A stretch of DNA of 47,812 bases from a virus. Lineage: Duplodnaviria; Heunggongvirae; Uroviricota; Caudoviricetes. Below are positions 22,918-41,287 of the stretch, in pieces. The notes under the pieces were generated by a model. The model was not told the origin of the DNA, did not search any database, and was given only the letters and a program-made list of their open reading frames with translations. The first letter of the stretch is position 1. Every line of letters begins with the position of its first letter. A program made the position numbers and the translations under genes. The stretch spans positions 1 to 47,812 of IMG/VR virus record IMGVR_UViG_649989947_000010. One strand, written 5' to 3'.

Positions 22918-24246
22918 CTGATGAATCCCCTAATGATTTTGGTAAAAATCATTAAGTTAAGGTGGATACACATCTTGTCATATGATCAAATGGTTTCGCG
23001 AAAAATCAATAATCAGACAACAAGATGTGCGAACTCGATATTTTACACGACTCTCTTTACCAATTCTGCCCCGAATTACACTTAAAACGACTCAACAGCT
23101 TAACGTTGGCTTGCCACGCATTACTTGACTGTAAAACTCTCACTCTTACCGAACTTGGCCGTAACCTGCCAACCAAAGCGAGAACAAAACATAACATCAA
23201 ACGAATCGACCGATTGTTAGGTAATCGTCACCTCCACAAAGAGCGACTCGCTGTATACCGTTGGCATGCTAGCTTTATCTGTTCGGGCAATACGATGCCC
23301 ATTGTACTTGTTGACTGGTCTGATATTCGTGAGCAAAAACGACTTATGGTATTGCGAGCTTCAGTCGCACTACACGGTCGTTCTGTTACTCTTTATGAGA
23401 AAGCGTTCCCGCTTTCAGAGCAATGTTCAAAGAAAGCTCATGACCAATTTCTAGCCGACCTTGCGAGCATTCTACCGAGTAACACCACACCGCTCATTGT
23501 CAGTGATGCTGGCTTTAAAGTGCCATGGTATAAATCCGTTGAGAAGCTGGGTTGGTACTGGTTAAGTCGAGTAAGAGGAAAAGTACAATATGCAGACCTA
23601 GGAGCGGAAAACTGGAAACCTATCAGCAACTTACATGATATGTCATCTAGTCACTCAAAGACTTTAGGCTATAAGAGGCTGACTAAAAGCAATCCAATCT
23701 CATGCCAAATTCTATTGTATAAATCTCGCTCTAAAGGCCGAAAAAATCAGCGCTCGACACGGACTCATTGTCACCACCCGTCACCTAAAATCTACTCAGC
23801 GTCGGCAAAGGAGCCATGGGTTCTAGCAACTAACTTACCTGTTGAAATTCGAACACCCAAACAACTTGTTAATATCTATTCGAAGCGAATGCAGATTGAA
23901 GAAACCTTCCGAGACTTGAAAAGTCCTGCCTACGGACTAGGCCTACGCCATAGCCGAACGAGCAGCTCAGAGCGTTTTGATATCATGCTGCTAATCGCCC
24001 TGATGCTTCAACTAACATGTTGGCTTGCGGGCGTTCATGCTCAGAAACAAGGTTGGGACAAGCACTTCCAGGCTAACACAGTCAGAAATCGAAACGTACT
24101 CTCAACAGTTCGCTTAGGCATGGAAGTTTTGCGGCATTCTGGCTACACAATAACAAGGGAAGACTTACTCGTGGCTGCAACCCTACTAGCTCAAAATTTA
24201 TTCACACATGGTTACGCTTTGGGGAAATTATGAGGGGATCTCTCAG
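22918..24246 (+). mobile_element. IS10 (IS4 family), complete 1329-bp copy
   Basis: Outside end CTGATGAATCCCCTAATGATTTTGG at 22918; inside end ...GGGGATCTCTCAG ending 24246; 402-aa transposase. Confidence 0.95.
23025..24233 (+). CDS. IS10 transposase
   Basis: 402 aa beginning MCELDILHDSLYQFCPELHLKRL, as recalled for IS10/Tn10 transposase. Confidence 0.95.
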   Translation: MCELDILHDSLYQFCPELHLKRLNSLTLACHALLDCKTLTLTELGRNLPTKARTKHNIKRIDRLLGNRHLHKERLAVYRWHASFICSGNTMPIVLVDWSDIREQKRLMVLRASVALHGRSVTLYEKAFPLSEQCSKKAHDQFLADLASILPSNTTPLIVSDAGFKVPWYKSVEKLGWYWLSRVRGKVQYADLGAENWKPISNLHDMSSSHSKTLGYKRLTKSNPISCQILLYKSRSKGRKNQRSTRTHCHHPSPKIYSASAKEPWVLATNLPVEIRTPKQLVNIYSKRMQIEETFRDLKSPAYGLGLRHSRTSSSERFDIMLLIALMLQLTCWLAGVHAQKQGWDKHFQANTVRNRNVLSTVRLGMEVLRHSGYTITREDLLVAATLLAQNLFTHGYALGKL

Positions 24247-25383
24247 AGCTTAACGTTGGCCTGCCACGCCTTACTTGACTGTAAAACTCTCACTCTTACC
24301 GAACTTGGCCGTAACCTGCCAACCAAAGCGAGAACAAAACATAACATCAAACGAATCGACCGATTGTTAGGTAATCGTCACCTCCACAAAGAGCGACTCG
24401 CTGTATACCGTTGGCATGCTAGCTTTATCTGTTCGGGCAATACGATGCCCATTGTACTTGTTGACTGGTCTGATATCCGTGAGCAAAAACGGCTTATGGT
24501 ATTGCGAGCTTCAGTCGCACTACACGGTCGTTCTGTTACTCTTTATGAGAAAGCGTTCCCGCTTTCAGAGCAATGTTCAAAGAAAGCTCATGACCAATTT
24601 CTAGCCGACCTTGCGAGCATTCTACCGAGTAACACCACACCGCTCATTGTCAGTGATGCTGGCTTTAAAGTGCCATGGTATAAATCCGTTGAGAAGCTGG
24701 GTTGGTACTGGTTAAGTCGAGTAAGAGGAAAAGTACAATATGCAGACCTAGGAGCGGAAAACTGGAAACCTATCAGCAACTTACATGATATGTCATCTAG
24801 TCACTCAAAGACTTTAGGCTATAAGAGGCTGACTAAAAGCAATCCAATCTCATGCCAAATTCTATTGTATAAATCTCGCTCTAAAGGCCGAAAAAATCAG
24901 CGCTCGACACGGACTCATTGTCACCACCCGTCACCTAAAATCTACTCAGCGTCGGCAAAGGAGCCATGGGTTCTAGCAACTAACTTACCTGTTGAAATTC
25001 GAACACCCAAACAACTTGTTAATATCTATTCGAAGCGAATGCAGATTGAAGAAACCTTCCGAGACTTGAAAAGTCCTGCCTACGGACTAGGCCTACGCCA
25101 TAGCCGAACGAGCAGCTCAGAGCGTTTTGATATCATGCTGCTAATCGCCCTGATGCTTCAACTAACATGTTGGCTTGCGGGCGTTCATGCTCAGAAACAA
25201 GGTTGGGACAAGCACTTCCAGGCTAACACAGTCAGAAATCGAAACGTACTCTCAACAGTTCGCTTAGGCATGGAAGTTTTGCGGCATTCTGGCTACACAA
25301 TAACAAGGGAAGACTTACTCGTGGCTGCAACCCTACTAGCTCAAAATTTATTCACACATGGTTACGCTTTGGGGAAATTATGA
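24208..25383 (+). pseudogene. N-terminally truncated IS10 transposase ORF with chimeric start
   Basis: ORF starts inside the 3' end of copy 1 and reads across the junction; lacks the first ~27 native codons. Confidence 0.7.
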
Positions 25384-29613: not shown

Positions 29614-30120
29614 TTGAGTATTTTCAATAAACACGCACACCAGGAACGTCCGTACATCGTCATAGTAGATATTGATGGGACGATATCAGAGGCAACGGAA
29701 GACAGGCTGCATTTACTTCCACCACCTGGCAAAGGTGCATTAACAGAGCACTGGAACGAGTTTAACCTTGCCTGTGACACTGATGCTCCCATCACTCCAG
29801 TTATTGATATGGTGCGCCAGTTGTCCGGCATTTACACCCTCTGGTTTGTAACCGGGCGCTGTGAGATAGCCAGGGATAAAACACGAGCCTGGTTGCGTAA
29901 GCACGTAACAAACGGGGCTGAGCCTTTGCTATCTATGCGTCCTGCTACCGATGATAGAAATGACGGCCCAGCAAAGATTGATCTCCTTAAGAAAATTGGT
30001 CTAAGTAAAATCGCGTTCGCGCTGGAAGATAAGATTGAAGTGGCGCGTGTTTTCAGGAGTCACGGCGTACTTACGTTAATGGTCAGGGAGTATGAAAACG
30101 CGCTTCTCCATCAACAATAA
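29614..30120 (+). CDS. HAD-superfamily phosphatase/nucleotidase-like protein
   Basis: TTG start with strong RBS GAGGAGGG; VIVDIDGT (DxDGT) nucleophile motif. Confidence 0.55.
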   Translation: MSIFNKHAHQERPYIVIVDIDGTISEATEDRLHLLPPPGKGALTEHWNEFNLACDTDAPITPVIDMVRQLSGIYTLWFVTGRCEIARDKTRAWLRKHVTNGAEPLLSMRPATDDRNDGPAKIDLLKKIGLSKIAFALEDKIEVARVFRSHGVLTLMVREYENALLHQQ

Positions 30121-30136
30121 TTGCTCTAATAAATCT
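30120..30136 (+). promoter_or_regulatory. C1 operator-like site (ATTGCTCTAATAAATCT)
   Basis: 16/17; overlaps the stop of the HAD-like gene. Confidence 0.65.
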
Positions 30137-30314: not shown

Positions 30315-31043
30315 ATGAAAGGCGAAGTGAAAGAGCGCGGCATGATTTTCAACGATGAGATGGTCCGGGCCATCATCGAAGGAAGGAAAACGCAGACGCG
30401 GCGGATAATGAAAAATCAGCCTGCGGAAGTTGGTCCAGAAGCACCAGTGATGGTTAGAAAAATTGGTGCAGGTTTTCAGTGGTACGGGGCTGATGGTGTA
30501 AGCAGTGTCTTCAATTGCCCCTTTGGTATCGTCGGCGATCGAATTTGGGTTCGTGAAACATGGGCGATATTAGGCAATGAGGATGGTTGTAGTGTGGACT
30601 GGAACGACAACCTTTGTCGTGGTGATGAGAAGAACGCAGCAAGGATTTATCGGGCCAGTTGTGAGCAAAAGCCTGGTGATTACGGCTTATGGTCGATACC
30701 CGATGATGCCGACTGGAAACCTCACACTGTGAATGAAAAGTTTGATGGTGGGTGGCGTCCATCAATTCACATGCCGCGATGGGCATCACGCATTCTGTTG
30801 GAAATTACCAACGTGCGCGTTGAGCGGTTGAACGATATCAGCGAATGCGATGCAGGGGCTGAGGGCGTTCCGCCTGCTGGAAGTTTGCTTCCTGATTACC
30901 CGGAAACATTCCTTACTCCCAAGGGGGATTTCGCAATGGCCAAGGTTGCGTTCCAGCGTCTGTGGGAATCCATCTATGGTGAAGAAAGCTGGAACGCTAA
31001 TCCCTGGGTATGGGTAATTGAGTTTAAGCGCATTCAGGAATAA
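30315..31043 (+). CDS. Phage protein, possibly ASCH/PUA-like
   Basis: N-terminus MIFNDEMVRAIIEGRKTQTRR resembles ASCH GxKxxExR-type motif; weak. Confidence 0.35.
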   Translation: MKGEVKERGMIFNDEMVRAIIEGRKTQTRRIMKNQPAEVGPEAPVMVRKIGAGFQWYGADGVSSVFNCPFGIVGDRIWVRETWAILGNEDGCSVDWNDNLCRGDEKNAARIYRASCEQKPGDYGLWSIPDDADWKPHTVNEKFDGGWRPSIHMPRWASRILLEITNVRVERLNDISECDAGAEGVPPAGSLLPDYPETFLTPKGDFAMAKVAFQRLWESIYGEESWNANPWVWVIEFKRIQE

Positions 31044-31052
31044 ACCGTGAGT

Positions 31053-31232
31053 ATGCATCAAGTCGTCAGCTTTTCAGGTGACGGGATTGCCAGAATGTAT
31101 GCCGACAGCGACTACAGAAATTTGTATCAGGCGATGGTGCAGGCCAAGCGGTTTGATACTGGTTCGTGTTCCGAATCATGTGAAATCTGGGGTGACCAAT
31201 TGGAGTTGAAATTCGAAGAGGTTGTGGCATGA
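31053..31232 (+). CDS. Small hypothetical protein
   Basis: ORF in tightly packed operon. Confidence 0.3.
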   Translation: MHQVVSFSGDGIARMYADSDYRNLYQAMVQAKRFDTGSCSESCEIWGDQLELKFEEVVA

Positions 31233-31432
31233 CAATCGTAAAAACCCATACCGGTACCGTGATCACCAAAGATGGCCCGCAGGTAAAAAAACTGCACCAA
31301 ACAGAGCGGATGTGGGTCGTTGGCAAAAACGAGTTTTACCACAAAGAAACTGGACGCCGCCATTTTGCAGAAAATACGCGCCGCCGACTGCTGTTAGACA
31401 CCATCAAGCCTATCGAGGTGAAGCATGTTTAA
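31229..31432 (+). CDS. Small hypothetical protein
   Basis: ORF with overlapping stop/start to neighbours. Confidence 0.3.
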   Translation: MTIVKTHTGTVITKDGPQVKKLHQTERMWVVGKNEFYHKETGRRHFAENTRRRLLLDTIKPIEVKHV

Positions 31433-31664
31433 ACAGAACGAAAAAGCTATCGCTCAAATTGCTGATTATATCCCGCGTGCGTGCCGGGGTATGCAGTTGC
31501 AGGAAGCCAAAGCGCGCCTGGAGAAAAAAATTGCGCTCTATATTGATGACGGCTGTGATGCCGCCGTTCTTAACGAGGCGTTCGCACCAGCTCTTAACAG
31601 TCATACTCGGGAGTCCTTTCTTTCGTGCATCGCAGCGCAACTCCACCAAGGAGGCATCCAGTGA
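31425..31664 (+). CDS. Small hypothetical protein
   Basis: ORF with GTGA overlap to next gene. Confidence 0.3.
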   Translation: MFKQNEKAIAQIADYIPRACRGMQLQEAKARLEKKIALYIDDGCDAAVLNEAFAPALNSHTRESFLSCIAAQLHQGGIQ

Positions 31665-32305
31665 GTAACCGTTTTTACATGATGTGCTTGCGTGAAACTG
31701 TGGGTAATAACGCCTCATTCCATTGCCATAACGGCAATGGTTACAGTTCTGATATCGATCGCGCTCATGTTTACACGCTGGAAGAAGCCCAAAAAGCCTG
31801 GAATTGTGGGCGAGATATCGATCAGCCTGTTTGTGCCGATAGTGTGGATGCAATTGCTGTGTGGCACGTTGATTGCCAGTACATCCCTACAGAAAGCCTG
31901 ATTGAGTCAGATTGCACTGCGTATGTGGCCTACAAAAAAGGTAGCTGGAACGGCAACGATGTTTACTGGCTTCAACACGGTGGATTGCCAACAGATGATT
32001 TCAGTAAAGCGACCATCTTTAGCGTCGCCAACAAAAACGAACCAGGAATAGTTTGGTTGCCATTTCCCATTGCTGATGCAGCAAAGCGCCGGACGTTCAA
32101 TATCAATAACTTTAACCGCAGAACAATGGTTCAGGGCGCAGGTTTGGTCATGCCTGACTGGTTGAAAGAGCAGAACAGAAGAAAGAAGTCGCGAAGCGGG
32201 AAGGTGCGTTGGAATTGTCCGCATTGCGGAAAAATCACCTGGCAGTACAGCCCATATGATTTTGAAGGCTGTAGTGATTACAACTGTGAAGGATGGCGAG
32301 AATGA
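31661..32305 (+). CDS. Cys-rich hypothetical protein
   Basis: GTG start at 31661 with RBS AAGGAGG; C-terminal CPHCG...C..C cluster. Confidence 0.4.
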   Translation: MSNRFYMMCLRETVGNNASFHCHNGNGYSSDIDRAHVYTLEEAQKAWNCGRDIDQPVCADSVDAIAVWHVDCQYIPTESLIESDCTAYVAYKKGSWNGNDVYWLQHGGLPTDDFSKATIFSVANKNEPGIVWLPFPIADAAKRRTFNINNFNRRTMVQGAGLVMPDWLKEQNRRKKSRSGKVRWNCPHCGKITWQYSPYDFEGCSDYNCEGWRE

Positions 32306-32985
32306 CAATTGACTATCAGGTACTGCGCGAGGCGGCGGAACAGGCAACGCAAGATGAATGGGTAGCATATATTTTGCCGGGGCAAAACGGCACTTATCCT
32401 GCGCATACGTCTGAGGGTAGGCATTGCGGATACTTTATTGACTGGCCTGGCATTGATGGACAGAGAAACGCTGGTGCCAATGCCCGTTATATCGCGGCTA
32501 TCCCACCCAAAGTTGTGCTGGCTCTACTGGATGAAATTAAGCGCCTGGAGGACACAAATATTGATGCTATGTGTCGAATTGCAGAGCTTGAGACTAATCT
32601 CGCGGCGCTGGTGGCGGAGAATGTGGGGCTAAAGGCGATATGTGATGACCGTCGCAGGTTCATCATGAATGGGGTGCAGATGGGTTATATCAAGGTGCCA
32701 GCAGCGGAAACAGATCCAGACCTTGAGACAATTCGCATTGCTATATCACCACAAAAGCCCATTCCAGCCACTGATGCTTTCCTGTCTGAAGTGCGGGCGC
32801 AGGGGGTGGATGCTGCTATAGAAGCTGCAAAAAATCTGGTGGTCCAAGAATATGAGTATAAGGATTTCAAAGCGGCGCAGAGTGATTGCTGTATGCACCC
32901 TGGTTCAGACCTGGTAGGGAAGGTTGAAATGACTGAGTGGTTAGTTGACTTTGCTGCCCAGCTTCGCAAAGGAGGCAACCAGTGA
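32293..32985 (+). CDS. Ea22-like early protein, paralog 1
   Basis: N-terminus DYQVLREAAEQATQDEW shared with next gene (DHQALREAAEQAMHDDW). Confidence 0.45.
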   Translation: MARMTIDYQVLREAAEQATQDEWVAYILPGQNGTYPAHTSEGRHCGYFIDWPGIDGQRNAGANARYIAAIPPKVVLALLDEIKRLEDTNIDAMCRIAELETNLAALVAENVGLKAICDDRRRFIMNGVQMGYIKVPAAETDPDLETIRIAISPQKPIPATDAFLSEVRAQGVDAAIEAAKNLVVQEYEYKDFKAAQSDCCMHPGSDLVGKVEMTEWLVDFAAQLRKGGNQ

Positions 32986-33557
32986 GCAAAATTGACCATC
33001 AGGCACTGCGTGAGGCGGCAGAGCAGGCAATGCATGACGACTGGGGATTTGACGCGGACCTTTTCCATGAGCTGGTAACACCATCGATTGTGCTGGAACT
33101 GCTGGATGAACAGGAAAGAAACCAGCAATACATCAAACGTCGCGACCAGGAGAACGAGGATATTGCGCTAACGGTAGGGAAACTGTTAATCGAAAACGGT
33201 CAGCTTGTTGCCGATACGCTACGCCACTTAGCTGATAACGAAATCGACTCTGATTATTTTGCTATCACCTCAACGAATGAGAACGGTACTGAAATTGATC
33301 ATGAGATGGCTATTACCGATTACGCACTGCAAGCTGCCGGAACTGTAGACGAATTGGTTGCAGCGCTGGAATCCGCAGAGAAGCGCATAGCAGAACTGTC
33401 TGCTAGCCACAGCAAATTGCGCGACACAATGGCTGGCATCCACAACACAATCCGAATGGATGGCGGATATACGCCACTGACAGCAATCCTTAACGCTGCT
33501 AAACGCGCATATGAAGAATCAGCAAGCGCAGCTGGCATTCGCATCAAAGGAGAGTGA
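32982..33557 (+). CDS. Ea22-like early protein, paralog 2
   Basis: Shared N-terminal motif; coiled-coil middle. Confidence 0.45.
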   Translation: MSKIDHQALREAAEQAMHDDWGFDADLFHELVTPSIVLELLDEQERNQQYIKRRDQENEDIALTVGKLLIENGQLVADTLRHLADNEIDSDYFAITSTNENGTEIDHEMAITDYALQAAGTVDELVAALESAEKRIAELSASHSKLRDTMAGIHNTIRMDGGYTPLTAILNAAKRAYEESASAAGIRIKGE

Positions 33558-33558
33558 T

Positions 33559-34074
33559 ATGGCGTTAACACACCGCGAACTCTGTCAGATTGCGTACAAG
33601 TTCCTTAAGCGCAACGGGTTCAAGGTTTGTTTTCATGACCGCTTTATAGCTGTAACCAGTACCGGAGAACAGCCAGATGCTATGGGATTCAGAAATTCAG
33701 CATCATGCCTGATAGAGGCGAAATGTTCTCGTGCTGACTTGTTGGCAGATAGAAAAAAGCGTTTTCGTAAAAATCCGTCTCTTGGAATGGGAGACTGGCG
33801 ATTCTTTATTAGTGAGCCGGGAATTATTTCAATTGAGGATTTACCACCTGGCTGGGGATTACTTCACGTTGTTAACGGAAGAGTACGGAAAGTACATGGG
33901 TGGCCCAAGGGTAATTGCTGTTGGGGTAATCCTGACGATAAGCCATTTACTGGAAATAAGCAGGTTGAATGCGATTACATGTTATCTGCATTAAGGCGCA
34001 TGGAGTTGAGAGGGCACCTTAATGAAATATATGACGGTGTAATTGTTAATAAGAAAGAAGGAAACGCGGCATGA
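33559..34074 (+). CDS. Putative PD-(D/E)xK-fold nuclease
   Basis: QPDAMGF ... CLIEAKCSRADL gives PD...(E)AK arrangement; RBS AAGGAGAG. Confidence 0.35.
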   Translation: MALTHRELCQIAYKFLKRNGFKVCFHDRFIAVTSTGEQPDAMGFRNSASCLIEAKCSRADLLADRKKRFRKNPSLGMGDWRFFISEPGIISIEDLPPGWGLLHVVNGRVRKVHGWPKGNCCWGNPDDKPFTGNKQVECDYMLSALRRMELRGHLNEIYDGVIVNKKEGNAA

Positions 34075-34478
34075 ACACTTTCACCGACAAAGAATTGATT
34101 AAAGAAATCAAAGAACGTATAGGCAGCCTGGACGTGCGAGACAATATTGAGCGCCGTGCTTATGAAATAGCGTTAGCCTCGCTGGAAGCTGAACCGGTGG
34201 CATGGCAGGTCACAATCACAAAAGACGGCCTGGACTCAGCCTCTATTATTTACCGTGACTGTGCAGAGAAAGATACATGGGTTCGGATACATGAGACACT
34301 TGGTTCTGTCGTACATGTCACCCCGCTTTACATGGCGTCGCCAGTGCCTGTAGTGCCGGAAGAAAAAACAATGCCTAATCCTCTTAGCATGTACGCGGTT
34401 GATGCTGTTGCCGCTATTGCAGAGGTAAGAGGCTGGAATGCCTGCCGCGCGGCTATGCTTCATGGGAAAGGAAAGTGA
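34071..34478 (+). CDS. Hypothetical protein sharing N-terminal module with 34911 gene
   Basis: YEIALASLEAEPVAW vs YKIALASLEAEPVAY in the 423-aa protein. Confidence 0.4.
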   Translation: MNTFTDKELIKEIKERIGSLDVRDNIERRAYEIALASLEAEPVAWQVTITKDGLDSASIIYRDCAEKDTWVRIHETLGSVVHVTPLYMASPVPVVPEEKTMPNPLSMYAVDAVAAIAEVRGWNACRAAMLHGKGK

Positions 34479-34479
34479 T

Positions 34480-34701
34480 ATGGCTAACTCATTACTTGAA
34501 ACCTGCAACAACTGGCAGATTCAGAGGGCGGAGATTTTATCTCGCAATCCAGATATGGCAATGACAATTGATAATCTGGACACGCTAATTGAACGGACCG
34601 TGCGTTCTGCAATTGATATAGCACATCGAGTGGATTGGGATTTCAGAGAAGCGGAGCGGCTTGCTAAAGAGCAGGAGAAAGCAGCGGGTAAAGGAGACTG
34701 A
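34480..34701 (+). CDS. Small hypothetical protein
   Basis: ATG at 34480 overlapping upstream stop. Confidence 0.3.
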   Translation: MANSLLETCNNWQIQRAEILSRNPDMAMTIDNLDTLIERTVRSAIDIAHRVDWDFREAERLAKEQEKAAGKGD

Positions 34702-34702
34702 T

Positions 34703-34900
34703 ATGGATAAAAACACCACTGCTTACTGGAATCTGTCACTTGATACCGAATGCCCAAAATGCGGTCACAATTTCGATCTGCTTTGTGATCCAGATTTCTG
34801 GGAATTTTCTGGAGCAAAACAGGCATGTGAAGAAATAAAAGGTTACGAAACATGCTGTCCAGAATGTAACCATGAATTTAAAACAGATTTTGTGTATTGA
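34703..34900 (+). CDS. Small zinc-ribbon protein
   Basis: CPKCGH ... CCPECNH. Confidence 0.35.
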   Translation: MDKNTTAYWNLSLDTECPKCGHNFDLLCDPDFWEFSGAKQACEEIKGYETCCPECNHEFKTDFVY

Positions 34901-34910
34901 GGCATAACGA

Positions 34911-36182
34911 ATGACCACTTTTACTAAAGAACAATTAATAGAGATGATTAAGCGCAATATAACGATTATGGATCGTTATCCTGATTTAGTAACTGCACAA
35001 ATGGATCTGGAAGTATACAAAATTGCGCTGGCATCACTGGAAGCAGAACCAGTTGCTTATATTTTCAAACATCCGGCCGGGAAATTATTCTGGGCTTTAA
35101 CGGATGAAAGCAATAAAGAGCAAGCGGACGTTATTCCTGTTTATGCTGCCGCGCCTGCGTCGGTTGTGCCGGATAATGCATCAGAGCCTCTTGCTTATGC
35201 TTACAAAGAGCTTACGCCTGAGATTATGCGCAACCATTTAGCTGTATTCGAGCGATATGGAATAGCCCCAAACGATAGCTCTACCACAATTCAGGCACTG
35301 CGAATCGCGCTGGATGGTATAGAGCGGAGCGACGCCATGCTTCAGTCCGGAAACTTTCGGGAAAACAAGAATTCGTCAACCAATAATTTTCGGGAAATCG
35401 CGGAAACGTCAACCAACTATCCGGTAATTCCTAGTGAGGTGTTGTCCGCAATCCTGAAGGTTGCCAAGATTCGTGCCGATTTCGATGATTTTGACGGTGA
35501 CAGGCGAGGTATCGATGATTGTCTGGATGAGGCTGAGCAAGAGCTTATCGTTACCATTAACAAATATGCCAGTCAGTTGGCAGCAGAACCGATAGCGACT
35601 AATGACGTTCGAGAGCAAACAGCCGTTCCGCCAGTTCCGGTAATACAGGCTGATGTCGCGCAGGCAATTGAAAAACTCAAACGGAAATTAGTGGAATGCA
35701 ATCGCTATAACTACTGCGCAGATGCAGTTAAAGGCGTTGAGGATGCCTGCCGTGCTGTTAGCTATAGCCATGCCGACAATCAACCAGCATCTGGCAACCA
35801 GGCAGCCGAATCCAATCGCGGTAATGAGTGGACCGGCAATCCTGATATTGATAACGCCATCATCATGCTCGATCGCATAGATACGCTGGAAAGTTGCGAT
35901 GATGACCGTATTGAGGCTGTTAAGGCTGTTTTGCGTAGACTAGCTGGCAACTCTCCGGTAACTCCGGATGGTTGGATAAGCTGTAGTGAGCGAATGCCGG
36001 ATACCAAAACAGCCGTTCTTGTTGCCGTGGAGTTTGACAGGAAAGGTGACTGGCGAATGAAATGGGCTACTTACATCCCGGGGCATCCTGACGCTAATGA
36101 TGGGTGGATAATTCCTGGTGCGTCGTGGAAACCGTCACACTGGATGCCGCTACCAGAACCGCCGCAGGAGGTGAATCAATGA
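34911..36182 (+). CDS. Hypothetical protein (423 aa) with Ea22-like N-terminal module
   Basis: Shared N-terminal motif with 34071 gene; no recognised catalytic motif. Confidence 0.45.
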   Translation: MTTFTKEQLIEMIKRNITIMDRYPDLVTAQMDLEVYKIALASLEAEPVAYIFKHPAGKLFWALTDESNKEQADVIPVYAAAPASVVPDNASEPLAYAYKELTPEIMRNHLAVFERYGIAPNDSSTTIQALRIALDGIERSDAMLQSGNFRENKNSSTNNFREIAETSTNYPVIPSEVLSAILKVAKIRADFDDFDGDRRGIDDCLDEAEQELIVTINKYASQLAAEPIATNDVREQTAVPPVPVIQADVAQAIEKLKRKLVECNRYNYCADAVKGVEDACRAVSYSHADNQPASGNQAAESNRGNEWTGNPDIDNAIIMLDRIDTLESCDDDRIEAVKAVLRRLAGNSPVTPDGWISCSERMPDTKTAVLVAVEFDRKGDWRMKWATYIPGHPDANDGWIIPGASWKPSHWMPLPEPPQEVNQ

Positions 36183-36262
36183 GCTGGCCTGAAGCATTCA
36201 CCACGGTAGGAATTGTGATGGCGGCAGCACTGGGTTTGTATTCAATTTGTCGCTGGTGGTAA
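36179..36262 (+). CDS. 27-aa hydrophobic peptide, translationally coupled (ATGA overlap)
   Basis: MSWPEAFTTVGIVMAAALGLYSICRWW; RBS GGAGGTG; not in ORF track. Confidence 0.4.
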   Translation: MSWPEAFTTVGIVMAAALGLYSICRWW

Positions 36263-36264
36263 CG

Positions 36265-36498
36265 ATGGGAAAAATAACTTTTGTAGTCGAATTTGAGGAT
36301 GGTAAAGAGCCACCTGTTAGCGCCAATCTTGATGTTGCTGGTGGCAGGCTTGTTTCGGTTCTATTTGGTGACTACCGAGATGATTTCTTCCAACCAGAAG
36401 AAGTTGATGTGGTGCGAGAGGCATTAAACGAGTTAAGTGTTGATAACGATGATGCTCATGCGGAAATCATCCAAAAAATGGAGCTGCTAACTCACTAA
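36265..36498 (+). CDS. Small acidic hypothetical protein
   Basis: ORF 36247..36498 trimmed to internal ATG. Confidence 0.3.
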   Translation: MGKITFVVEFEDGKEPPVSANLDVAGGRLVSVLFGDYRDDFFQPEEVDVVREALNELSVDNDDAHAEIIQKMELLTH

Positions 36499-36546
36499 AT
36501 TATCAATTATGGTGCTATCACCTACGACACCGAGAGAAAATTTATA

Positions 36547-36669
36547 ATGTCAAAAGTAAATGTTTTGATTTTTTCAGCAATTGTTGGCTTTGGTTTTACT
36601 GCCGGAGTGCAGATTTATATTACGTGGGAAAAAATCATCAACTACGCATGGAGTTGTTTTATTAAGTGA
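36547..36669 (+). CDS. 40-aa hydrophobic peptide
   Basis: MSKVNVLIFSAIVGFGFTAGVQIYITWEKIINYAWSCFIK; weak RBS. Confidence 0.3.
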   Translation: MSKVNVLIFSAIVGFGFTAGVQIYITWEKIINYAWSCFIK

Positions 36670-36676
36670 GGTAAGT

Positions 36677-36970
36677 ATGTGGAGAGGTAATAGTCATGGC
36701 AAAAGCCAGATGATACTTACCGAATATCAGCTCGACCACAAAACCAATAAATCACGTTCAGTATATTTGCTTCGCCACAATAGCCGCGTAAGGAATACCG
36801 TACTGGAGCAAAATCTGACCGTTGAAATGGATAATTACGGGGGCTTCAAGCCAACAATATCGCTTGATGATTTTCCTCGTGGTTTAAGCGAAAGAGAAGC
36901 AATGCTGAAATTAGCAGAATGGCTACAAAGATTAAGCATTGCTATTGAAGATAACTGGTCTGAACCTTAA
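36677..36970 (+). CDS. Small hypothetical protein
   Basis: ATG at 36677 with RBS GAGGTAAG. Confidence 0.35.
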   Translation: MWRGNSHGKSQMILTEYQLDHKTNKSRSVYLLRHNSRVRNTVLEQNLTVEMDNYGGFKPTISLDDFPRGLSEREAMLKLAEWLQRLSIAIEDNWSEP

Positions 36971-36976
36971 ATTAAT

Positions 36977-37351
36977 ATGATGACACTAAAACATTTTCTT
37001 GACCGCCCATTATGGGCGGCAGCCGCAGGCTATGACTTTAATTATATGGATTGCATGTCTTATACTGCCAATGCATACGACCATTCGTTCAGCCTGCTGT
37101 TTAATTCTTTAAGAATATTGCCGGAAACAGAAGTTGGAGAGCTTCATTTATGGATATTGGGCTTTATCGCGGCTGTCGTTGGTATTGCTGTATGGCCTTT
37201 TATTTTCTGGCTGGTGGCTGTTGTAGTGTGGTTTAAGTGCAAGACATACCGGAGAAAGTATTTCTTAGGTGATGGAATGACTGATATTGCCAAAATGAAC
37301 ATTGAAAAATGGACTAAGGAATGTGAAAAGAAATGGCGCAAAAAGAAATGA
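36977..37351 (+). CDS. Membrane protein (124 aa)
   Basis: Hydrophobic stretch LWILGFIAAVVGIAVWPFIFWLVAVVVWF, basic C-terminus. Confidence 0.4.
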   Translation: MMTLKHFLDRPLWAAAAGYDFNYMDCMSYTANAYDHSFSLLFNSLRILPETEVGELHLWILGFIAAVVGIAVWPFIFWLVAVVVWFKCKTYRRKYFLGDGMTDIAKMNIEKWTKECEKKWRKKK

Positions 37352-38271
37352 CCAGAATCACTGAAGAGCGTATATCAGAGATTATTTCCCGTATCGAAAT
37401 GTATGGTCACGGTGCTGGATATACGGCAGATGAAGTATTGGCACTTGCCCAAATGGCTTTGGCGGCTTGCAAAGATGATAAAAAAATGAAGCTTATCGAC
37501 TTGTTAGTGAAGGAGCTGCCTAAGTGCGGCGGGTGGCCTGATGGAATGAGTTATTGTTACCTACCCAGTGTCAATTTAATGGCACCATGCGCGACTTTTG
37601 CTTTTGGCTCAGACCACAAAAAAGACACTTTCTTTGGGCGCAATTTTTGTTGTGAGATTGAGCTTCCAATTGGTGACCTTGATAGCGATGAATACCAGTC
37701 AGTTGTCACTCGCGAACAATACGAATCAGCTCTCATAGCGTCGCAGAAAGTCGAGTTCAATGGTGATGAACCTGAAAGTAAGACTTACAGGTTGGATTTT
37801 GGGCAATGGCTGGAACAGCAACGCGGAAAGATCGATGTGGACTGTGGTTGTGTGTCCACTGAAACATTCATGCACTGGCTGCGGGTAGCTTACGAGGCTG
37901 GCAACTATCCGGATATTCCGGATAGTTCGGTGTCAGCGCCAGGAAAGGGCGTCACCGGTGGACGTATCCGCATTAAGCCGCATGTTTATCGCGAACTGGT
38001 TAACCGTCTCCACGATACAGCGATCAAGTGTGCTGGCACCCAGCAATTACGAGAAAGAATTAGCCGTGTTTTGGGCGACGTTATTACGCCAGATCATCAT
38101 AAACAAGCCGAGAAAAGTGGCTTGGAAAGGTGTCACCTTGAGGCGGCATTAAACATTAAGCCGGGGCATACGCTTGGCATTATTGATGCACTATTGGTTC
38201 ATAAGATGGCCAGGGCTTTATTGCCGCTGGTGGCTGAAAAGCATGAGGCGGACCATGCCAACGAAAGCTGA
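37333..38271 (+). CDS. Hypothetical protein (312 aa)
   Basis: ORF in operon; no recognised domain. Confidence 0.4.
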   Translation: MAQKEMTRITEERISEIISRIEMYGHGAGYTADEVLALAQMALAACKDDKKMKLIDLLVKELPKCGGWPDGMSYCYLPSVNLMAPCATFAFGSDHKKDTFFGRNFCCEIELPIGDLDSDEYQSVVTREQYESALIASQKVEFNGDEPESKTYRLDFGQWLEQQRGKIDVDCGCVSTETFMHWLRVAYEAGNYPDIPDSSVSAPGKGVTGGRIRIKPHVYRELVNRLHDTAIKCAGTQQLRERISRVLGDVITPDHHKQAEKSGLERCHLEAALNIKPGHTLGIIDALLVHKMARALLPLVAEKHEADHANES

Positions 38272-38539
38272 GTTACAGGCGCGCATAGAGATTCTTGAAA
38301 AAGAGAATGCGAGTCTAAAAGGAATGCTGGCGCGGGCGGAAAGGGAATTATCAGGCAAATTATTGCCAGAAGAGCTGCCACCAGCAGATATACCTGATCG
38401 AGTGTCCTGGTGGATGAAGTATTTCCGTGCACCGTGGGAGGCGTTTTGGTGCTACGACCATCGCAGATGGTGTGATGAGCTTGATAGCAGTTTCCCCTAT
38501 TTTGCGGAAGGGAACTCTTGCCCTGAATGTAGGAGTTAA
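38255..38539 (+). CDS. Small protein with C-terminal W-x-DELD-x-SFPYF ... CPxC module, paralog 1
   Basis: RWCDELDSSFPYFAEGNSCPECRS; paralog of next gene. Confidence 0.4.
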   Translation: MPTKAELQARIEILEKENASLKGMLARAERELSGKLLPEELPPADIPDRVSWWMKYFRAPWEAFWCYDHRRWCDELDSSFPYFAEGNSCPECRS

Positions 38540-38844
38540 TGATGACCGGCGAGCTTTATTTTAAAATGGCACGGGAGCGGCGTGTGCATCTGGATCGGAT
38601 ATTTCATCTCCAGAAGAGAGTAGAAGAACTGGAACGTCGTCTGAACTGTTATCCTGTTGATATGGTGTCTGCAATACCGCCGATTCCAATAGAAATGCAG
38701 ATCCGCCTATGGATGGAAGAATATGGAATGCCGTGGGAGATATTTTTCTGCTTCGACCATAAACAGTGGGTAGATGAGCTGGATAATAGTTTCCCATATT
38801 TCACAGAGAACACATGCCCAGTATGCAGGAAGAACGGAATATGA
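38539..38844 (+). CDS. Small protein with C-terminal W-x-DELD-x-SFPYF ... CPxC module, paralog 2
   Basis: QWVDELDNSFPYFTENTCPVCRK; TAATG overlap with paralog 1. Confidence 0.4.
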   Translation: MMTGELYFKMARERRVHLDRIFHLQKRVEELERRLNCYPVDMVSAIPPIPIEMQIRLWMEEYGMPWEIFFCFDHKQWVDELDNSFPYFTENTCPVCRKNGI

Positions 38845-39365
38845 CAAAATTTGGAAAGCTGGAAGCTCATTTGCTAACTCGTAACTACCGCCATGATATA
38901 CACCCATATAGACAGTGGATCGATGAAAGCGAAGGAGTAGTTACATTCCCTCTATACAGGTTTGATGGGATGTTGGCTGGGTATCAGACATATAGACCAG
39001 GTGCTCATAAGCAGCATAGCAATCCGAAGATGGCCCGGTATTTCACGCGATCACACGGCAGACAGTTACTTTGGGGAACCTATCTTCCTTTAAAAGATGG
39101 CCCAATATGGATAACTGAGTCTATTTTTAAGAGCGCAGCTGTACACAACGCGGGCGGCAATTCGTGGGCGCTGTTAGGTTCGACTTTCTCCGCAGGATTA
39201 CGCCGTCAACTTGCGATGCTGCCGTATGACTTTCGTGTAATAGGTGACAATGATGCGGCTGGTGAATTACTTGTGAAGTCTTTCGGAAAAGGTTTTGTGG
39301 CCCCGGATCTTGACGAGCTACAACCACATGAAGTGTCTCATTTGATTTTTAGCCATAGCCAATAA
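38841..39365 (+). CDS. Small Toprim-domain protein
   Basis: IWITESIFKSAAV (conserved Glu) and VIGDNDAAG (DxD) in Toprim order; ATGA overlap with upstream gene. Confidence 0.4.
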   Translation: MTKFGKLEAHLLTRNYRHDIHPYRQWIDESEGVVTFPLYRFDGMLAGYQTYRPGAHKQHSNPKMARYFTRSHGRQLLWGTYLPLKDGPIWITESIFKSAAVHNAGGNSWALLGSTFSAGLRRQLAMLPYDFRVIGDNDAAGELLVKSFGKGFVAPDLDELQPHEVSHLIFSHSQ

Positions 39366-39487
39366 GCATCTCTCCCCTTTGAGGCCACAACTAGTGGCCT
39401 TAAACAATTTGTTTTCTACGTTTTCTTATTTGAGAAAATCACGTTGTTGGCAGCTCATAGGCTCGTTGTTATACATGGCTGTATAGA

Positions 39488-39844
39488 TTATGAGCGTAAA
39501 TTATTAGCGGATTTTAAGCCATATTCACCGTTGTAGAAATTACTCATGTTCCATTCATTGGGAAGCTCTTTTCTGTCCAATGTATAGTGGCGCACGATAT
39601 AACGATCTTCATCTTCTTCGATGGACAGGCGGACATAGCCAATGTGAATTACCGATACGGGCGGCGTCCGTATTGCATAGATATCGCGGAGATATACCGG
39701 TAGCTCGACAAATGCATCAGGTGCATCTGTGATGCTCATTTTTTCACAGTATTCATATAACGCATCGTTGATATCGTTAAGAGATTCATGATCGTATATT
39801 TCCAGGTAATTACCGCGATCGCGATGGTACTCGATTTTAGCCAT
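39488..39844 (-). CDS. Hypothetical protein (118 aa)
   Basis: Second gene of short leftward operon divergent from humD. Confidence 0.4.
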   Translation of the reverse strand: MAKIEYHRDRGNYLEIYDHESLNDINDALYEYCEKMSITDAPDAFVELPVYLRDIYAIRTPPVSVIHIGYVRLSIEEDEDRYIVRHYTLDRKELPNEWNMSNFYNGEYGLKSANNLRS

Positions 39845-40993: not shown

Positions 40994-41065
40994 GCTGCAA
41001 AGTGCTGGTGCTTTATGCCTGTGAAGTTTATAATTGTGTACACATAACGAGTACACGAGGTGTTT

Positions 41066-41287
41066 ATGCAATCCATTAACTTCCGTACCGCGCGTGGCAA
41101 CCTTTCTGAAGTGCTCAACAATGTTGAAGCCGGGGAAGAGGTTGAAATCACCCGCAGAGGCCGTGAGCCAGCAGTAATTGTCAGCAAGGCTACTTTCGAA
41201 GCCTACAAAAAAGCGGCGCTGGATGCTGAATTTGCATCCCTGTTTGACACCCTGGACTCCACCAACAAGGAACTGGTTAACCGATAA
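41066..41287 (+). CDS. phd: Phd antitoxin
   Basis: 73 aa beginning [39 protein letters not shown] as recalled for P1 Phd. Confidence 0.9.

Follow-up and report, generated by a model that had tools for sequence, protein, structure and literature searches.

A minimal primase-type core without a zinc finger next to two independently shuffled zinc-knuckle genes in a P1-like phage-plasmid

A P1-like phage-plasmid encodes a protein of 174 amino acids which, judged from its sequence and its predicted structure, is a minimal primase core of the DnaG/T7 type that lacks only a zinc finger and a helicase-binding module. We make this assignment because the whole protein aligns to the cores of the DnaG, T7 and T4 primases and to the replicative primase of T5-like phages. 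Two genes for small zinc-knuckle proteins, here called Zn1 and Zn2, directly precede it, and most likely all three are independently shuffled accessory genes instead of a dedicated three-part machine. The account as a whole, i.e. an accessory primase-type core with unrelated zinc neighbours at the distal end of a C1-type operon, is one that we consider reasonably probable.

The window, which is the whole stretch of 47,812 nucleotides that was analysed, is a P1-like phage-plasmid and matched P1, P7 and SJ46 in a megablast search; HumD, Phd and Doc are found downstream of the three-gene locus. The features that matter for the following analysis are:

14628-15998: Ban, a DnaB-like protein encoded in the window
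30120..30136, plus strand: C1-operator-like site with 1 mismatch, at the head of a ~9-kb plus-strand array
37333..38271, plus strand: PmgT-like gene, directly 5' of Zn1 and overlapping the Zn1 start
38255..38539, plus strand: Zn1, 94 aa, RefSeq CDS WP_001142392.1
38539..38844, plus strand: Zn2, 101 aa, paralogue of Zn1
38841..39365, plus strand: Toprim/primase-core gene, 174 aa (175 codons with the stop)
39378..39404, plus strand: terminator-like hairpin with an 11-bp stem and a T-rich tail, from a pattern scan
41060-41287: the genuine phd gene, present in the ORF list and in the RefSeq annotation

The three open reading frames lie at 38255-39365, where the preliminary description had placed them, and are translationally coupled by start/stop overlaps of 1 nt (TAATG) and 4 nt (ATGA). 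Coupling as tight as this is expected for the subunits of one complex. Each of the three starts has a Shine-Dalgarno-like purine run on its 5' side. A RefSeq plasmid carries the same three annotated CDS, with 100% identity for the zinc genes and 99.7% over the full three-gene interval, and a search with Rfam detected no RNA elements at the locus.

The AF2 model of the 174-aa protein (pLDDT 89) has a Toprim fold. Using Foldseek against the PDB, the top 36 matches were all DnaG, T7 gp4 or T4 gp61, with ~165 aligned columns of the 174 residues and query-normalised TM-scores of 0.43-0.63. The Toprim domain of RNase M5 (6Z2B) ranked under all of these primase matches, and the best matches in BFVD were T5-like 'DNA primase' proteins (TM 0.85). 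Profile comparisons gave the same assignment: phrog_849 ('DNA primase') was matched with 1e-52 at positions 145-333 of 435, and the family profile searched against the PDB recovered the DnaG RNA-polymerase domains 4E2K, 1EQN and 1DD9 (E ~2e-3) over motifs II-VI, the alignment taking in 'FPL..G.l.GY' and 'K...N.P'. With hhalign, the protein aligned to residues 124-282 of the 296-aa T5-like primase (E=3e-5), past the CHC2 zinc finger of the latter. The preliminary description had recognised a Toprim-like Glu (IWITESIF) and DxD (GDNDAAG), and both the motifs and the fold are indeed present. Its statement that no primase domain is attached was mistaken, as residues ~20-85 form the primase-specific N-terminal subdomain with motifs II and III.

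Conservation within the family follows the same pattern. E93, D136 and D138, the acidic residues of the two motifs, are invariant in an alignment of 12 family sequences reaching down to 32% identity, and K57, N61, D156 and E159 are near-invariant. The last two residues are part of 'DLDE', a distal acidic cluster after the DxD that is at least 90% conserved and aligns with 'KDPGD' of the T5-like primase; we take it to be equivalent to the T7 'KDANE' and the DnaG D345/D347 region. The motif II/III residues G43, G47, Q49, Y51, P53, P62 and Y67-T69 are invariant. The Toprim profile search proposed in the preliminary description was successful at the level of the family, in which 5-6 of the 12 members match Pfam Toprim_2/3/4, but the window protein itself stays under the Pfam thresholds. 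There are zero cysteines in the 174-aa protein, which therefore lacks a zinc finger (primase motif I). Past the Toprim fold, the model terminates in a single helix (162-173); neither a DnaB-binding C-terminal domain nor a fused helicase that could serve as helicase-coupling module was found, and none of the libraries searched (Pfam, PHROG, NCBIfam) revealed a further domain.

The protein belongs to a large, catalogued phage family, phrog_849, which includes gene T5.076 of phage T5. At E<=1e-3, the family comprises 1638 representative proteins, and the best 150 of these are mostly 165-190 aa long; the window protein shows full-length homology, lies within the family range of 160-190 aa and has no extra domains. 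Longer relatives carry heterogeneous N-terminal extensions, mostly without a Pfam match, with one case each of DUF3268 and ParB_N; in the former (P0137), a different zinc-finger domain is thereby fused to the core. Relatives in T5-like phages and Kagunavirus coexist with a separate, canonically organised primase. In the T5-like phage AKFV33, this separate primase adjoins helicase and polymerase and the mini version is located among tRNA genes, and Kagunavirus JSSK01 has an annotated 'replicative helicase/primase' besides the mini-primase. Neighbouring genes were inspected at 15 representative Toprim loci; L062, a further locus, gave no gene. The only recurrent neighbour at these loci was an SNF2 helicase in Kagunavirus/Jersey-like phages, to which the mini-primase gene is translationally coupled inside the DNA polymerase module. 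Elsewhere, copies occupy variable early/accessory regions, next to genes such as Lar, a T7-kinase-like gene, Sequestin and, identified by sequence only, NAMPT-like genes, and a Vibrio phage copy adjoins a tRNA nucleotidyltransferase. Among 5426 complete E. coli genomes, 60 contain the full gene, always on plasmids; ~85 further genomes have a partial match only, which in those sampled is a 3' remnant. SJ46 also contains a remnant. The literature on T5.076, stand-alone Toprim proteins and the P1 variable region yielded nothing specific, and no biochemical data on members of phrog_849 or phrog_3797, the family of the zinc proteins, were found.

Zn1 and Zn2 are paralogues, as had been proposed, with 28 of 54 identical residues (52%) at the C-terminus (BLASTP E=4e-22), and both match phrog_3797 (9e-58 over the full length of Zn1, 2e-36 for Zn2). 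Zn1 is of type A ('TKAELQAR...') and combines an N-terminal coiled coil with a C-terminal C-x2-H-x19-C-x2-C zinc knuckle; the type B protein Zn2 ('ELYFKMARERR...') has C-x2-H-x18-C-x2-C. The common tail motif given in the preliminary description is present in both proteins, but the spacing in Zn1 (SFPYF-AEGNS-CPEC) is one residue longer than in Zn2 (SFPYF-TENT-CPVC). Furthermore, the description had missed the invariant C-x2-H located 18-19 residues upstream of the CPxC, which completes the site to C-x2-H-x18/19-C-x2-C. The corresponding Zn2 residues C71, H74, C93 and C96 are invariant in family alignments. Diverged family members show covariation of the ligands, with an exchange of H and C at ligand 2 and of CPxC and CxC, and the general motif of phrog_3797 is a coiled coil followed by a C-x2-[H/C]...C-x(1-2)-C knuckle. 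From this pattern, the four ligands C-x2-H/C...C-x2-C of Zn1 and Zn2 are predicted to bind metal. The AF2 model of Zn2 (pLDDT 78) consists of a long N-terminal helix and a small C-terminal domain. All 93 homologues are 44-126 aa long without any fused domain, and the family is small and confined to phages of Enterobacterales.

A relationship of these proteins to the zinc domains of primases was not apparent. Pfam zf-CHC2 gave no match at E<=1, the zinc-protein profile hit only coiled-coil noise in the PDB, and hhalign comparisons with the N-termini of T7 gp4 (E=0.14 over 16 columns) and the T5-like primase (E=0.82) were equally weak. Foldseek of the zinc-protein model against the PDB returned nothing under E=4.8, a value that refers to a ~45-residue domain in a metal-free model with a pLDDT of ~80. 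Neither a fusion nor a conserved genomic linkage of the zinc family to a primase catalytic core was found. The source name 'antitoxin PHD' of the Zn1-type proteins is unsupported, with no PF02604 PhdYeFM_antitox match in Pfam/NCBIfam, which is a lesson for annotation. A PmgT-like protein as obligate partner of the zinc proteins holds true within P1-like elements only: in P1-like relatives, the conserved C-terminal block of PmgT invariably precedes Zn1, which is not the case in other phage backgrounds.

The co-occurrence survey comprised 159 viral loci (80 Toprim and 79 zinc loci), and a zinc gene was sought within 4 kb. Zinc genes were present at 13 of the 80 Toprim loci, all of them P1-like copies with at least 97% identity, and at 0 of 61 diverged Toprim loci; conversely, 66 of the 79 zinc loci had no Toprim gene. 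The same picture emerged from E. coli, where the 60 genomes with a full Toprim gene compare with 24 that possess the Zn1+Zn2 pair. In PhiR41_1, the same Toprim gene (98% aa identity) comes after an EaA gene and zinc genes are absent, and the tandem of type A and type B zinc genes without the Toprim gene occurs in L012, L106, L107, L112-114 and L116. Recombination breakpoints coincide with the gene borders (38538/9, 38826-44 and 39419): Zn1 acts as a cassette of its own with its end at 38538, and the Toprim cassette common to other elements spans 38840-39419. In L106, a Hot (theta) cassette is found immediately upstream of Upf93.6, which is the slot of the Toprim cassette in the window. The idea of duplicated partners of a Toprim protein is therefore not supported, as zinc and Toprim genes move separately in relatives and the three genes are linked only in near-identical P1-like elements.

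The Toprim gene is the last member of a plus-strand ORF array that is unbroken from 30315 to 39365. A pattern search detected 11 C1-operator-like sites, compared with 0.19 expected, and the site at 30120..30136 occupies the position of OpmgT in P1, where OpmgT is annotated directly 3' of pap. The hairpin at 39378..39404 marks the 3' end of the operon and moves together with the Toprim cassette. Zn1, Zn2 and the Toprim gene most likely make up the distal part of a pmgT operon that has been enlarged. Judged by synteny with P1, this early operon is probably repressed by C1 and would hence be expressed upon lytic induction.

Concerning the function, the N-terminal subdomain carries motifs II and III, which are basic and bind nucleotide and template, and the fused Toprim domain holds the metal-binding Glu, the DxD and the distal D-x-D-E. 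Because of the homology and the conservation of the catalytic residues, the 174-aa protein is predicted to carry out Mg2+-dependent nucleotidyl transfer, most likely synthesising short oligoribonucleotides on single-stranded DNA. The missing zinc finger and helicase-binding module suggest an accessory primase, sequence-unspecific or recruited by a partner, and not the main replicative one; possible partners would be Ban, the DnaB analogue encoded by the phage-plasmid itself, or host DnaB. Zn1 and Zn2 probably form an A/B dimer of coiled-coil, zinc-knuckle proteins, and their genes would adjoin the primase-like gene through cassette shuffling and not through functional necessity.

Three other explanations were weighed against this accessory primase. 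In DnaG-type primases such as T7 gp4 and DnaG, the zinc-binding domain is normally needed for template-directed synthesis, so a zinc-less core might prime poorly or act otherwise. The first alternative is a split primase, in which the Zn1/Zn2 coiled-coil dimer provides the zinc template-recognition module in trans to the cysteine-free core, with one primase being made from all three genes. It would agree with the missing zinc finger, the gene overlaps of 1 and 4 nt, the ligands and spacing of C-x2-H-x18/19-C-x2-C, which resemble the CHC2 fingers of DnaG-type primases, e.g. that of the T5-like primase, and the case of P0137, whose core carries an unrelated zinc-finger domain; furthermore, the zinc-binding domains of T7 act in trans between subunits. 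Nevertheless, we regard it as very improbable and have set it aside as main explanation because neither a similarity to primase zinc domains (in Pfam, NCBIfam, PDB profile and hhalign comparisons, and with Foldseek for the small metal-free model) nor a conserved linkage was found: the genes are linked in a single near-identical P1-like lineage, full Toprim genes outnumber zinc pairs in E. coli, and PhiR41_1 has the core without zinc genes. Of the two roles suggested in the preliminary description, small nuclease or primase accessory, the latter in the form of an accessory primase-type enzyme is most likely. The 174-aa protein might also be a small Toprim nuclease resembling OLD, RNase M5 or AriB, with DNA or RNA (for instance the precursors of tRNA or rRNA) as its substrate, since such nucleases have this metal site of Glu and DxD as well. 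The presence of RNase M5 6Z2B among the fold matches (E=5e-3), the T5-like copies in a tRNA gene cluster and the Vibrio phage copy next to the tRNA nucleotidyltransferase point in this direction, and archaeal DnaG, which also has no zinc finger, functions in RNA metabolism. However, a nuclease is less likely, and we give it little credence, because the match to RNase M5 covers only the Toprim half (97 columns) with a much weaker E-value than the ~36 whole-protein primase matches; motifs II and III, which are specific to primases, are conserved up to invariance, and the 174-aa protein matches none of the PADLOC models, including those for defence nucleases.

Somewhat less unlikely, though still doubtful, is the recruitment of a primase-derived enzyme to an accessory function outside replication, in host takeover or counter-defence, where it might for example make or bind small nucleotides or RNA or substitute for a shut-down host DnaG. 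Such a role would fit the redundancy with an annotated primase where checked (AKFV33, JSSK01), the position in variable early/accessory regions and the frequent loss or truncation of the gene. In contrast, the context is heterogeneous without any conserved partner gene, and the coupling to the SNF2 helicase in the DNA polymerase module of Kagunavirus/Jersey-like phages points to replication. A combination of these ideas is a rather unlikely option as well: the cysteine-free T5.076-type family may be a widespread non-replicative accessory enzyme, derived from the primase core, whose P1-like copy might be coupled to a coiled-coil dimer of the type A and type B zinc proteins for template or target specificity in trans. 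The family may then include enzymes that stand in for DnaG but escape control by the host, that make or bind small RNAs or oligonucleotides, or that act in counter-defence.

On the accessory-primase reading, the gene is a member of a very large family of minimal primase cores that lack zinc, and not an orphan Toprim nuclease with two dedicated partners. It raises the questions of how a DnaG-type core can function with neither zinc finger nor helicase tether, and what makes phages retain a second primase when they already have one or can use host DnaG. The locus is, moreover, an example of cassettes being exchanged gene by gene in the pmgT-lxr variable region of P1, where a homologue of the Pol III subunit theta (Hot) and the mini-primase swap places immediately upstream of Upf93.6.

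Compared with known systems, the primase fragment of T7 gp4 (1NUI, 6N9U) has the same two-part core of a small N-terminal subdomain and Toprim (~175-185 residues). The folds match over 161-171 columns (TM 0.53-0.58) at 15-20% sequence identity, and E157 and D207/D209 of T7 align with the Glu and the DxD of the 174-aa protein, which has neither the Cys4 N-terminal zinc-binding domain nor the fused C-terminal hexameric helicase of gp4. The best Foldseek matches (E=2.5e-5) are the RNA-polymerase domains of DnaG (1DD9, 1EQN, 3B39, 4E2K). The DnaG core is larger (~320 residues) and includes a further helical subdomain at its C-terminal end; it lies between a CHC2 zinc finger and a DnaB-binding domain. 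The 174-aa protein has none of these three parts. The replicative primase of T5-like phages (AKFV33 orf123, 296 aa) aligns including the distal KDPGD acidic motif; in contrast to the mini-protein, it has a canonical N-terminal CHC2 finger and is encoded between replicative helicase and DNA polymerase. Closest are the T5.076/phrog_849 proteins of Tequintavirus, Kagunavirus, Jerseyvirus and others, with 41-49% identity over the full length, the same domain content and no structural difference. They differ in their setting, which is lytic phages as opposed to a temperate P1-like phage-plasmid with a predicted C1-controlled operon.

Mobile elements also encode DnaG-type accessory primases such as Sog (IncI1) and TraC1 (RP4), which free the element from host priming (PMC5512222). 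These are large multidomain proteins transferred in conjugation, unlike the 174-aa protein, and the likeness drawn here is one of role. Finally, the Toprim nucleases OLD, RNase M5 and AriB/GajA usually have an ATPase or other partner domain and no primase N-terminal subdomain, whereas the 174-aa protein possesses this subdomain.

The three open reading frames noticed in the preliminary description are all present in the window. Their stop and start codons overlap (TAATG, ATGA), and a Shine-Dalgarno-like purine run lies 5' of every start:

38255-38539, plus strand, Zn1, small zinc-knuckle protein of 94 aa
38539-38844, plus strand, Zn2, paralogue of Zn1, 101 aa
38841-39365, plus strand, Toprim gene, protein of 174 aa
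39378-39404, strong terminator-like hairpin after the Toprim gene and part of the Toprim cassette

For the 174-aa protein itself, Pfam and NCBIfam returned no match, and in PHROGs it matched phrog_849 ('DNA primase') at 1e-52, covering only profile positions 145-333 of 435. In a family alignment of 12 sequences with identities down to 32%, E93, D136 and D138 are invariant and G43-L45-G47-Q49-Y51-P53...K57...N61-P62...Y67-F68-T69 are invariant or near-invariant. The profile of this alignment matched the DnaG RNA-polymerase domains of S. aureus, E. coli, P. aeruginosa and A. aeolicus (E about 2e-3) across motif II (FPL..G...GY), motif III (K...N.P), the Toprim glutamate and the DxD. Structure prediction, proposed earlier as a check, had a positive outcome: it gave a confident AlphaFold2 model (pLDDT 89.3, pTM 0.84), whose best 36 PDB fold matches were all primase cores of DnaG, T7 gp4 or T4 gp61, over about 165 columns. 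By hhalign, residues 124-282 of the 296-aa replicative primase of the T5-like phage AKFV33, taken as a reference from the same lineage, align to the protein (E=3e-5). Taken together, the profile, fold and hhalign matches identify it as a predicted complete minimal primase catalytic core and not a bare Toprim domain. The homology to the primase RNA-polymerase domain extends over all 174 residues, with every catalytic motif conserved except the zinc finger, which overturns the earlier reading of a stand-alone Toprim with no primase domain. The protein contains no cysteine whatsoever and hence lacks motif I, and it carries no helicase-coupling domain.

An exhaustive profile search recovered 1638 representative proteins at E<=1e-3, the best 150 of which are overwhelmingly 165-190 aa long. 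Longer relatives are rare and have heterogeneous N-terminal extensions, one with a DUF3268 zinc finger. Among annotated phages, 490 records contain a member, labelled 'DNA primase', 'toprim domain-containing protein' or 'hypothetical'; the hosts of the family include T5-like Tequintavirus (the T5.076 orthologue, inside the tRNA cluster), Kagunavirus/Jerseyvirus, Erwinia and Dickeya jumbo phages and Vibrio phages. In the jumbo phages, the homologue is found in two adjacent pieces in different frames (e.g. pEa_SNUABM_7, L015 2453-2999), which may have arisen by a frameshift or a programmed event or may mark a pseudogene. Full-length copies are present in 60 of 5426 complete E. coli genomes, always plasmid-borne, and about 85 further genomes match only partially; the sampled ones hold 3' remnants, as in SJ46 (L001 6077-6274). 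Such a distribution points to an accessory gene that is dispensable. Many P1-like elements keep no more than the last ~65 codons, adjoining Upf93.6, a sign that the gene was deleted repeatedly.

The linkage of zinc and Toprim genes was surveyed by scanning two sets of viral loci with both profiles, 80 that contain a Toprim homologue and 79 that contain a zinc homologue. The two kinds of gene occur together in only 13 loci, where the Toprim protein is at least 97% identical to that of the window (Zn1 and Zn2 in 11, Zn1 alone in two). No zinc gene lies within 4 kb of the Toprim gene in six equally close loci (at least 97%), nor in any of the 61 diverged ones (about 20 clusters at 80% identity), and 66 of the 79 zinc loci lack a Toprim gene. 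Metagenome loci bear out both patterns. In PhiR41_1, the same Toprim gene (98% aa identity) directly follows an EaA gene and precedes umuD. Nucleotide comparison with P1-like relatives placed recombination breakpoints at gene borders (38538/9, 38826-38844, 39419, 39500 and 39862), and in one locus (L018) a lipoprotein cassette replaces Zn2. The slot directly 5' of Upf93.6, filled by the Toprim cassette in the window, holds in L106, a sister P1-like element, a cassette for Hot, a DNA Pol III theta homologue (4878-5117); thus, the same slot is used alternately by two distinct replication-accessory genes. Zn1 and Zn2 are neighbouring cassettes independent of the Toprim gene and not dedicated subunits of the mini-primase, and the idea of duplicated partners found no support.

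The element itself is a P1-like phage-plasmid (Punavirus): SJ46, P1, P7, RCS47 and D6 match positions 37300-39500 at 93-99% identity. Both zinc genes share 100% identity with E. coli plasmid NZ_CP063155.1, and the full three-gene interval 99.7%; the genes are annotated there as two hypothetical proteins and one 'toprim domain-containing protein'. Homologues of Upf93.6, lxr, humD, phd, doc, pdcB and lpa lie downstream of the locus, and Dmt and an RdgC-like protein are encoded upstream, as is Ban. Three tRNA genes (Asn-GTT, Thr-TGT and one with a CAT anticodon) occupy 12119-14348, as in P1, and an IS10-type insertion spans 22963-25383. Further features are:

14628-15998, Ban (DnaB analogue)
22963-23032, Rfam RNA-OUT, part of the IS10-type insertion
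23025-24233, 402-aa ORF within the insertion
24208-25383, second ORF of the insertion, with a DDE_Tnp_1 transposase domain match
30120-30136, C1-operator-like site with one mismatch, directly after a pap-like ORF
41060-41287, the real phd gene

The site at 30120-30136 is at exactly the position of OpmgT in P1, and from it to the Toprim stop ea-type accessory genes follow one another on the plus strand without a break. Judging from this synteny, a C1-repressed promoter probably drives the trio upon induction. In the window, 11 sites (0.19 expected by chance) match the P1 C1 operator consensus ATTGCTCTAATAAATTT at 3 mismatches or fewer, including those at 8158, 11434, 21867, 30120 and 47661; these predicted sites would map the C1 regulon of the element.

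Zn1 and Zn2 both belong to phrog_3797, and their C-terminal 54 residues are 52% identical (E=4e-22). The shared motif described before holds, except that Zn1 is one residue longer there, and it represents half of the metal site, which also includes an invariant C-x2-H 18-19 residues upstream. In diverged relatives the histidine is replaced by cysteine (CPEC, CDKC) and CPxC by CxC; such covariation of the ligands speaks for a true zinc knuckle with four of them. For the N-terminal halves, long helices or coiled coils are predicted. The 93 homologues measure 44-126 aa, are never fused and are confined to Enterobacterales. Tandems of a Zn1-type and a Zn2-type gene recur without a Toprim gene across diverged phages (L012, L106, L107, L112-114, L116), which hints at a heterodimer with its own function. 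Two single 96-aa genes (P0033, P0034) combine a Zn1 N-terminus with a Zn2 C-terminus, apparently as a result of unequal recombination between the paralogues. Many Zn1-type proteins are named 'antitoxin PHD' in RefSeq and UniRef, probably a propagated misnomer: they have no Phd/YefM domain and no Pfam support. A 32-nt spacer of a chromosomal type I-E CRISPR array in E. coli LI60C3 perfectly matches the Zn1 gene (window 38416-38447; L179 401-432), and the ATG just before the protospacer (38413-38415) would suit type I-E as a PAM.

Mechanistically, E93, D136 and D138 together with D156/E159 may bind two metals, and the mini-primase would catalyse NTP condensation on ssDNA as an accessory primase, either of low specificity or recruited by a partner. 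Replication of P1-type elements is served by host functions plus Ban. Among the rivals to an accessory primase, an enzyme that derives from a primase but has a non-replicative accessory role ranks roughly as the likeliest. A Toprim nuclease comes roughly second; the Toprim-only RNase M5 aligns to the model over 97 columns, against about 165 for the primase cores, and with weaker E-values. Roughly the least likely is a split primase in three pieces, Zn1, Zn2 and the core: no relationship between the zinc domain and the zinc-binding domains of primases could be detected in Pfam, in a PDB profile search, in a Foldseek search with the zinc-protein model (pLDDT 78) or by hhalign against T7 and T5-like primase N-termini.

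In the lineages checked, AKFV33 and Kagunavirus JSSK01, the accessory-type mini-primase is not the sole primase-type gene; JSSK01 also encodes a 'replicative helicase/primase'. Two primase-type genes are found in T5-like genomes: in AKFV33, a ZBD-bearing primase sits between replicative helicase and polymerase (L178 16256-17146), and a second, cysteine-free gene product of ~172 aa is encoded among the tRNA genes (L014 4989-5507). A better description of the 174-aa protein is a zinc-less mini-primase from an already known phage family. Its alignment covers everything downstream of the canonical CHC2 finger of the AKFV33 primase, and the two share a distal acidic motif, 'KDPGD' in the AKFV33 enzyme and 'DLDE' in the mini-primase.
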